NCBI GenBank assembly: GCA_045635705.1 | Contig: JAZTWE010000001.1 | Coordinates: forward strand, 1 to 43,024 | Reading direction: 5' to 3' | Origin: Candidatus Enterousia sp. | GTDB lineage: Bacteria > Pseudomonadota > Alphaproteobacteria > Rs-D84 | Length of the DNA stretch: 43,024 nt | Shown: piece after piece, positions 6,132 through 6,608 of the stretch | How the letters are laid out: every line of letters starts with the position of its first letter | Position numbering within the stretch: the first letter of the stretch is position 1 | Notes under the pieces: generated by a model | What the model was told of the DNA's origin: nothing | The model's database searches: none | Seen by the model: only the letters and a program-made list of their open reading frames with translations | Position numbers and translations under genes: made by a program

Positions 6132-6608
6132 ATGAAACAATTTTTTTTATTTACAATCCTGTTGGCATCAACAACCCATGACACTTACGCCGCCACAACA
6201 ATAAAGGCATGGTGCCAATGGGAAGACAGTGGCGATAGCATAACCTGTCTGCACCCAACAGCAACAACTGACATTGCAGTAAAACCTGGCAAAACAGTAA
6301 CATGTAAATGTGGTACAAACGGCTATATAACATATACCTGCCAAACATACATGGCCCCAGACACAGACGAGCAATATGATTATTTCGAGCAAACAACATC
6401 ATGTGCCCCTTTAAATTGTCCTAAAAACTATTTTGATGACGAACTGGGGAACTGTGTCAGTTGCGTTTCTGCCACAGGCAATTCCAAGGCCGTCACATCA
6501 TCATCTGGGAAAATTGGGATAACCAGTTGCTACCTACCGTCCGGTTATTCTGCATCCGATACCAGCGGCCAATACACATATACATCTGCGTGTTATTATA
6601 AAAAATAA
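6132..6608 (+). CDS. P2: small secreted Cys-rich protein; its C-terminal module is shared with P5
   Basis: Signal peptide MKQFFLFTILLASTTHDTYA, preceded by the RBS AGAGGG. C-terminal Cys pattern C-x11-C-x2-C-x21-C-x20-C-YYKK-stop. The track ORF 5889..6608 has a non-coding-looking N-terminal extension that overlaps the terminators. Confidence 0.7.
   Translation: MKQFFLFTILLASTTHDTYAATTIKAWCQWEDSGDSITCLHPTATTDIAVKPGKTVTCKCGTNGYITYTCQTYMAPDTDEQYDYFEQTTSCAPLNCPKNYFDDELGNCVSCVSATGNSKAVTSSSGKIGITSCYLPSGYSASDTSGQYTYTSACYYKK

Follow-up and report, generated by a model that had tools for sequence, protein, structure and literature searches.

P2 and P5, two cysteine-rich proteins encoded in the window (the whole 43,024-nucleotide stretch of Candidatus Enterousia sp. 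DNA analysed here), carry a six-cysteine module at their extreme C-termini that sequence comparisons indicate is homologous in the two proteins. The best explanation of these comparisons is that P2 and P5 belong to a family of small, Sec-exported, cysteine-rich proteins of reduced-genome gut Alphaproteobacteria, and the family would represent a novel bacterial form, fixed at the C-terminus, of an already described type of domain; the function proposed for it below is a prediction.

The C-terminal module of P2 and P5 and its family

The P2 gene (6132..6608, plus strand) is an open reading frame of 158 amino acids plus stop that ends ...SACYYKK. Its product comprises a predicted Sec signal peptide (aa 1-20, MKQFFLFTILLASTTHDTYA|ATT), a cysteine-rich N-terminal part (aa 21-87) and the six-cysteine module TTSCAPLNCPKNYFDDELGNCVSCVSATGNSKAVTSSSGKIGITSCYLPSGYSASDTSGQYTYTSACYYKK (aa 88-158; 6393..6605, plus strand). 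An SD-like AGAGGGA lies 5 nt upstream of the P2 ATG. A longer open reading frame starting at GTG 5889 was considered and rejected, since it would overlap the conserved non-coding leader described below, and ATG 6132 was therefore taken as the real start. The P5 gene (24258..25298, minus strand) encodes 346 amino acids plus stop, ending ...SNCEYKK, with a putative signal peptide (aa 1-20, MPKIIVGFVVAMFMATSAFA|EIEG), a cysteine-rich N-terminal domain of ~250 aa and the C-terminal six-cysteine module GCSYTEFNEWACQSGYYMSGANVCSACPSHSSGAQTSSYANMDDVSACYVPVGKYSDTTGAYEIGPSNCEYKK (aa 274-346; 24261..24479, minus strand). Neither sequence was recorded when both were looked up exactly. A metatranscriptome contig covered positions 24327-24646 within P5; for P2, no RNA-seq run was listed and one metatranscriptome containing the P5-secretin stretch gave no coverage.

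When P2 and P5 were compared by BLASTP, the tails alone aligned, with 24 of 65 residues identical (E 5e-4), which agrees with the claim of an earlier note on this DNA that the two proteins share a C-terminal cysteine-rich module and have unrelated N-terminal parts. That note had proposed shuffled cysteine-rich sequences as the yardstick for the alignment, and the two tails exceeded it: their Smith-Waterman score was 79, compared with 36.8 +/- 8.3 for shuffles in which the P5 tail was permuted with every cysteine held in place, and 2 of 5000 such shuffles reached 79. A profile of 140 other family members, from which P2, P5 and the P5 orthologs had been omitted, gave 71.1 bits for the P2 tail and 58.5 bits for the P5 tail, while the maxima for Cys-fixed shuffles were 15.6 and 19.7 bits, respectively. 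The tails are short and compositionally biased and their pairwise E-value is modest, so the likeness could be attributed to chance or to the composition of two tails rich in Cys and in Ser, Thr and Gly. Since very few Cys-fixed shuffles reach the pairwise score and none the profile scores, and since the same architecture recurs in 170 protein clusters, we regard this reading as already refuted by the sequence comparisons, with a probability close to nil, and we attribute the resemblance to homology rather than to cysteine spacing. No third copy of the module was found in the window, P2 and P5 being the sole two.

The cysteine spacing given in the earlier note, C-x11-C-x2-C-x20/21-C-x20-C, is correct in both proteins, but the module starts one cysteine earlier, so that it contains six cysteines in ~70 residues. 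Likewise, the terminal YKK does end both P2 and P5 but is peculiar to this genome and not conserved in the family, the P5 orthologs ending in KYN, TYN or YYSN.

The database search for the module that had also been suggested was productive. When 1.84 billion representative proteins were searched exhaustively by HMMER with a two-sequence profile of the tails, 170 protein clusters were recovered at E<=1e-3; word-index protein searches with tail alignments gave 0 and 6 matches, and the family was thus recovered by exhaustive HMMER only. Its hosts are nearly all metagenome-assembled genomes (MAGs) of gut Alphaproteobacteria (Candidatus Enterousia, order Rs-D84 and relatives), and its members are named "hypothetical protein" throughout, with "Alphaproteobacteria bacterium" as the sole organism label. 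None of 64 modules compared with NCBIfam matched a model, and no description of the family was found in the searchable literature. A pattern scan of metagenome contigs with a nine-sequence alignment added 22 loci, several of them from human gut, and in each of these the module ends the open reading frame.

The architecture of the family was described from the best 150 of the 170 clusters. Protein length ranges over 61-432 aa (median 181 aa) and Cys content is 8%; the N-terminus resembles a signal peptide in 141/151. The last cysteine lies 2-5 residues from the stop codon in 143/151 proteins, with exactly four residues following it in 101 of 143 modules, and the second residue after it is Tyr in 136/148 (Trp in 8, His in 4), giving a conserved ending of Cys-x-Tyr-x-x-stop. 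The C3-x2-C4 spacing is invariant (143/143 modules) and the spacing between C5 and C6 is x20 in 124/143. The module can be summarized as C-x(7-9)-C-x2-GYY-x(6-10)-C-x2-C-P-x(15-20)-IT-x-C-Y-[IL]-P-x-G-x(3-4)-D-x2-G-x-[YF]-x-[YF]-x3-C-x-Y-x-x-COOH, and the alignment consensus reads C.........C..GYY..g...C..CP...g...tts..G.t.IT.CYiPsGt..sD.tG.ytyt.nCyY.. over its length. A few members carry an extra upstream unit. At the other extreme, minimal members consist of a signal peptide and the module (P0015, 97 aa; P0021 and P0025, 93 aa), and P0015 is conserved, being found on 12 contigs. The existence of these minimal members implies that the module would fold, and presumably act, on its own.

Across the 170 clusters, the module is attached to N-terminal parts without detectable mutual similarity, in line with the portability that the earlier note had ascribed to it. 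The N-terminal part of P2 is an orphan, with no relative among the family members or the loci compared. P5 has four orthologs at 44-46% identity, plus P0006 and P0007; the module is 50-59% identical between P5 and its orthologs and the N-terminal domain 44-48%, and this domain of ~250 aa is common to the P5 orthologs only. Individual genomes carry several paralogs, a large investment for ~900 genes: one human-gut assembly has at least seven module genes, spread over four contigs of similar coverage (40.4-42.0), and another locus (L084) holds three module genes within 16 kb.

Relation to eukaryotic cysteine-rich repeats

The earlier note had likened the cysteine pattern to eukaryotic TNFR, ephrin-receptor-like and furin-like repeats, and this likeness held in part. 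The full P2 and P5 proteins matched no Pfam family at E<=1, and thus neither reaches the cut-off of Ephrin_rec_like (PF07699); the isolated P2 tail matched TACI-CRD2 alone (E 0.034). Relatives of P2 and P5, in contrast, did match Ephrin_rec_like, a family formerly called GCC2_GCC3 that describes a putative ephrin-receptor-like repeat of eukaryotic extracellular proteins: it was found in 21 of 150 full family proteins and in 21 of 64 isolated modules at E<=0.1. The best module scored 37.6 bits against a cut-off of 23.1 (E 1.9e-9), its residues 3-46, which extend between the "GYY" and "ITxC" cysteines, aligning with PF07699 positions 10-48, and none of nine Cys-fixed shuffles of this module matched Pfam. 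Since P2 and P5 themselves give no Pfam match, their link to Ephrin_rec_like is transitive: both join the family profile, and their relatives match PF07699 while shuffles do not. Taken together, these data support the view that the module is a distant relative of Ephrin_rec_like.

Matches to other families were weaker. TNFR_ELAPOR1_6th (PF23091) was found in 15/64 modules, with a best E of 3e-4 and a score under the 33.2-bit cut-off, TNFR_c6 in one family member (E 0.07), and Furin-like_2 was touched by a few members. The Giardia variant-specific surface protein (VSP) family (PF03302) matched three members weakly (E about 0.003-0.009, below cut-off). A module profile compared with PDB sequences returned nothing at E<=1. 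We also considered the "CysRRep" repeats described in 2026 as markers of horizontal gene transfer (bioRxiv 10.64898/2026.06.07.730663) and rejected them as relatives because their cysteine pattern, Cx6-9Cx5-7Cx8-11Cx7-8CC, differs from that of the module.

An AlphaFold2 model of the P2 module, made with a 64-sequence alignment, was compact, with short beta hairpins and a mean pLDDT of 90.9, while full-length P5 modelled with seven homologs reached a pLDDT of 41. The best Foldseek matches of the module model in the PDB were 4-1BB, thyroglobulin and ELAPOR1, all non-significant (E 1.2-2.8, TMq 0.42-0.45), and its best match in BFVD was a vaccinia TNFR-like protein, also non-significant (E 3.1). 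The predicted fold thus agrees in direction with kinship to TNFR and ephrin-receptor repeats but does so without significance, and with HMM scores under the cut-off as well, the module falls outside the TNFR cysteine-rich domains as currently modelled.

The PF07699 match stops at the "ITxC" cysteine, and we therefore read the module from its sequence as one divergent Ephrin_rec_like (GCC2_GCC3/TNFR-type) unit of ~45 residues followed by a conserved C-terminal cap. The cap comprises the last ~25 residues and is a beta hairpin closed by the final cysteine; its motif, CY[IL]PxG...D..G.Y.Y...C.Y, falls outside the Pfam model. Like PF07699, the module has C-x2-C-P, a Thr/Ser-rich stretch and G-[AS]-x3-[IV]-x2-C, and it is predicted to be extracytoplasmic and disulfide-rich. 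It differs in that its first CxxC has usually lost one cysteine (C-x2-GYY), and in that it occurs as a single copy that ends small bacterial proteins (61-432 aa), whereas PF07699 repeats occur in tandem in large eukaryotic receptors. TNFR-type cysteine-rich domains such as those of 4-1BB/TNFRSF9 and ELAPOR1 (PF23091) resemble the module in being elongated, disulfide-stapled beta-hairpin units. Ephrin_rec_like is held to have emerged in eukaryotes and to be rare in bacteria, where single cases have been read as transfers (PMC6993872).

The family also resembles Giardia VSPs in combining a hypervariable cysteine-rich N-terminal part with a C-terminal part that stays constant, in its many paralogs and in belonging to a host- or partner-dependent organism. 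In contrast with VSPs, the module proteins are bacterial and lack a hydrophobic transmembrane segment and the CRGKA tail, ending instead in C-x-Y-x-x; the analogy is architectural only and does not extend to switching or mutually exclusive expression.

The leader RNA of P2

The P2 gene is preceded by a putative structured leader RNA of ~230 nt (5860..6088, plus strand; nhmmer 154 bits). Its predicted parts are a 5' hairpin, a long-range helix in which GGGGUGUGAGAAC pairs with GUUCUCAACCUCC and which closes a multi-helix junction, an invariant hairpin of the form CUCCUGA-loop-UCAGGAGG, and, 43 nt before the P2 ATG, a hairpin (6060-6086, plus strand) that resembles a terminator and carries a U run. 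This last hairpin and its U run recur across 13 aligned leaders, about 30-45 nt upstream of the start codon. Transcription of the P2 unit has a promoter-like site (TTTGCA/TTGCAT, spacer, TATAAT; 5826..5855, plus strand) whose -10 box aligns with those of 12 other leaders (alignment columns 39-44), and the ~270 nt from promoter to ATG are 73-82% identical in nucleotides ahead of module genes that encode unrelated N-termini.

RNAalifold applied to the 13 leaders gave 64 pairs in nine helices, 27 of them with compensatory changes. In the alignment, 92.3% of cells were paired compared with 82.8% in shuffles, and the 27 pairs changed on both sides compare with 15.3 +/- 2.1 in shuffles, none of 500 of which reached 27. 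In a control in which the structure was slid along the leader, 4-11 pairs were changed on both sides. A search of 1.82 Mb of locus sequence with nhmmer found 16 full-length copies of the leader, one of them at 5860-6088 in the window, and 13 of the 16 lie directly 5' of a module gene or of a two-gene unit in which a 120-aa cysteine-rich gene is followed by a minimal module gene. One further copy (L002) precedes a cysteine-rich protein with an internal module-like stretch, and another (L037) precedes two secreted proteins without the module. P5 lacks a leader of this type.

The window sequence is present in runs from bovine gut metagenomes, in which the depth over 5972-6107 was 10-25 times that of the flanks and many contigs branched at these positions into different "ATGAAAAAA..." genes. 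A scan of the whole window with Rfam 15 gave a tRNA-Phe as the sole gathering-level match; over 5780-6150, the best score was 16 bits against a threshold of 50, which places the leader in no Rfam family. From its conserved structure and position, we read the leader as a putative conditional transcription attenuator of this gene set, although it could be an independent small RNA instead. As an orphan riboswitch-like candidate, the leader is tied to a well-defined gene set, and this could aid efforts to identify a ligand.

Pilus neighbourhood and possible roles of the module

P2 is convergent with the gene for a pilus platform protein, and P5 lies downstream of a secretin gene on the same strand, as the earlier note had described. 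The T2SSF platform, T2SSE ATPase, PilO-like, secretin and TcpQ-like genes of the window are genuine and resemble a type IVb system. Among their neighbours, uvrC, tolB, dnaA, dprA, sufB, gatA, gatB and miaB mark the window as part of a bacterial chromosome. A scan of species-representative genomes for the pilus ATPase yielded 80 loci at 83-90% identity, in gut MAGs labelled Candidatus Enterousia or Alphaproteobacteria, and the secretin, ATPase and platform genes are kept in all 80 relatives. One of the 80 records is titled Bacteroides fragilis, probably owing to a binning error.

These gene positions would suit P2 and P5 as type IVb pilus components, namely tip adhesins or minor subunits with the module as the pilus-targeting part, but the pilus association proposed in the earlier note is contradicted by synteny. 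In none of the 80 related genomes did a relative of P2 or P5 lie within 10 kb of the pilus ATPase or beside the ATPase and platform genes, and the platform gene is usually followed there by a gene of 189 aa and gyrB. The orthologs of P5 lie elsewhere, with yceG and ribosomal-protein genes as neighbours in L081 and a DsbA-type gene in L082 and L083, and 30 other module genes occupy unrelated contexts, adjoining rplM-rpsI, tolB-pal and other genes. Both genes in the window also appear monocistronic, each with its own promoter-like site and terminator: P2 is followed by a bidirectional terminator hairpin (6614..6638, assigned to neither strand) between it and the convergent platform gene, and P5 has a promoter-like site ~110 nt upstream of its ATG (TTGCCT, 17 nt, TATAAT; 25408..25436, minus strand; consensus match only) and a terminator hairpin directly after its stop codon (24237..24254, minus strand). 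Finally, the N-termini of P2 and P5, as read from their sequences, are ordinary Sec-type signals without the prepilin G|F/M-x-x-x-E motif. Neither the class III signal nor the conserved pilus-cluster location of a type IV pilin or minor pilin is present. We consider a pilus role very improbable.

We propose instead, with moderate confidence, that the module is a disulfide-locked extracytoplasmic domain for binding or docking, common to the diversified secreted repertoire of a partner-dependent bacterium, and we infer for it the "targeting or binding" role suggested in the earlier note. The proteins would be exported by the Sec pathway and form their disulfides in the periplasm, a route with which the DsbA-type gene beside the P5 ortholog in two loci is consistent. 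The oxidised module would fold into a rigid, disulfide-locked knob that would serve as the constant interaction surface of the family, binding or docking to one common partner, either the bacterium's own envelope or a partner or host cell, while the fast-diverging N-terminal parts would supply variable function. In this way, a bacterium that is predicted to depend on other cells for its living would gain a diverse set of surface or secreted proteins, and expression of P2 and most of its relatives would be gated by the structured leader RNA with the terminator hairpin at its end.

The main rival to a binding or docking domain is a C-terminal sorting or secretion domain that is read, and perhaps removed, by dedicated machinery, as is the C-terminal domain (CTD) of the type IX secretion system (T9SS). 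Such a domain would account for the strictly C-terminal position in about 145/151 proteins at a fixed distance from the stop codon and for the unrelated N-termini, which would then be the real cargo, and a candidate for this machinery is the type IVb pilus/T2SS-like system, whose secretin, ATPase and platform genes are the ones conserved in 80/80 relatives. The T9SS CTD resembles the module in being conserved, 70-100 residues long and placed at the very end of otherwise unrelated proteins with signal peptides. The CTD is an Ig-like beta sandwich, however, whereas the module is six-cysteine and knot-like, sits in an alphaproteobacterium and also occurs in stand-alone proteins; none of the 64 modules matched a sorting-domain model in NCBIfam, and no T9SS gene is annotated in the window or the loci. 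The conserved members that consist of signal peptide and module, such as P0015, would leave a sorting tag no cargo to carry. Around the 30 module genes, no recurrent neighbour (processing enzyme, exporter or immunity protein) was found, the only recurrence being P738-like large cysteine-rich proteins at four loci, and the module shows no conserved adjacency to pilus genes. Its homology to a known extracellular interaction repeat likewise speaks against a sorting role, and we consider this explanation rather unlikely.

The missing immunity-like partner gene also bears on a further explanation, that the proteins are small disulfide-rich effectors or toxins, either bacteriocin-like or host-modulating mimics of ligands or receptors, with the module as the active, target-binding part. 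That they are small, secreted and cysteine-rich, that stand-alone module proteins exist, that the domain is of a type held to be eukaryote-born and rare in bacteria (PMC6993872), and that partner dependence is predicted for the producer would all fit this idea, but no toxin family was matched, and the best 150 of the 170 clusters are all short bacterial-type proteins without a close eukaryotic homolog and thus give no sign of recent transfer. We consider an effector role doubtful, including, for example, one in which the module would imitate a domain of TNFR or ephrin-receptor type from the animal host or a gut protist. A bolder form of the binding proposal also strikes us as improbable. In it, an obligately partner-dependent gut alphaproteobacterium of <1 Mb would use the module proteins, as a variable surface or secreted repertoire based on a eukaryote-type receptor repeat, to attach to or manipulate its partner, be it the host epithelium, a gut protist or some other microbe; a riboswitch-like attenuator, belonging to an as yet undescribed class of structured cis-regulatory RNA, would switch the repertoire on in response to a partner or gut signal.

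Members of Rs-D84, the order of Enterousia, are fermentative, with genomes of <1 Mb that encode neither respiration nor standard transporters, and an obligately symbiotic or parasitic life is predicted for them (PMC12306168). Rs-D84 and Enterousia occur widely in the guts of ruminants, equines, birds and humans, where they are predicted to live off other cells, and the module family is a candidate for the interface by which they contact their partner cells. That a genome of ~900 genes keeps at least seven paralogs of a secreted family points to such an interaction interface, and a constant domain related to a eukaryotic cell-surface receptor repeat would provide a concrete, testable handle on it. 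The family would also add a sizeable bacterial branch to a domain type held to be eukaryote-born.

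A conserved leader RNA upstream of P2 and related genes

The gene for P2, a 158-aa secreted Cys-rich protein (6132-6608, plus strand), is preceded by a conserved, structured leader RNA of ~230 nt (window 5860-6088, plus strand), with a promoter-like site at 5826-5855 on the same strand and a terminator hairpin inside the leader at 6060-6086. The same RNA lies upstream of most genes elsewhere that encode the module, the ~70-residue six-Cys C-terminal domain found in both P2 and P5. Its fold comprises nine helices, with compensatory changes in 27 pairs, and no Rfam family matched it. 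The leader is a candidate riboswitch-like attenuator.

Three bovine gut DNA runs gave the leader core (window 5972-6107) a contig depth 10-25x that of its flanks (in one example, 133 versus 4.8), and many contigs diverge from this core into differing downstream genes that start with ATGAAAAAA or ATGAACAAAA. The raised depth and the branching contigs show that the leader element is multi-copy in the community or genome. A second multi-copy piece occupies the intergenic region between the secretin gene and P5 (window 25531-25637), where depth was 19-55 compared with about 4-10 in flanking sequence and several contigs end. This piece, which matched neither tRNA nor Rfam entries, contains a long hairpin (AATCGGG...CCCGATT) directly past the secretin stop codon.

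Two-gene units and neighbors of the module genes

At loci L093 (5556-6210) and L096 (5572-6210), a single leader is followed by two genes, and such units also occur in L097, L098, L104, L105, and L109. The first gene encodes a secreted, Cys-rich protein of 120-137 aa without a canonical module, while the product of the second (88-99 aa) consists solely of a signal peptide and the module.

Directly upstream of P2, the window encodes a 738-aa secreted, very Cys-rich protein (3535-5751, plus strand) whose N-terminal region is rich in Ser, Thr, and Arg and whose gene has its own terminator (5774-5787). No Pfam entry matched this protein, and its relatives (21-27% identity) in L103, L105 (two copies), L106, and L109 have module genes at most 6 kb away. 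The P5 ortholog on two contigs lies immediately downstream of a DsbA/thioredoxin-type gene (L082 65-886; L083 8961-9782), which is consistent with disulfide formation in these proteins but may be coincidental.

Pilus genes and a possible second modular family

The type IVb pilus/T2SS-like genes, among which no pilin gene was recognized in the window, fall into two minus-strand clusters: PilO-like, 220-aa, ATPase, and platform genes (6649-11348), and TcpQ-like and secretin genes (25638-28217). Between the clusters lie housekeeping genes (tolB, dnaA, dprA, plsY, rpsT) spanning about 14 kb. GC skew is negative nearly throughout the window (1-43024), with no inflection seen at dnaA (19571-20851, minus strand).

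In one Enterousia genome, a gene for a 368-aa protein with 26 Cys (L002 13313-14467, plus strand) comes after the platform gene. This protein carries an internal, divergent module copy (35.7 bits), and its gene is preceded by the same leader RNA as P2. Here another member of the family takes the place that P2 holds in the window.

Two further minus-strand genes encode secreted proteins of 303 aa (22255-23166) and 598 aa (17707-19503), the latter weakly matching DUF5874. Segments of the two (47% over 179 aa; 54% over 69 aa) match distinct parts of a single 846-aa protein from L091, and the two look like a further modular surface-protein family.
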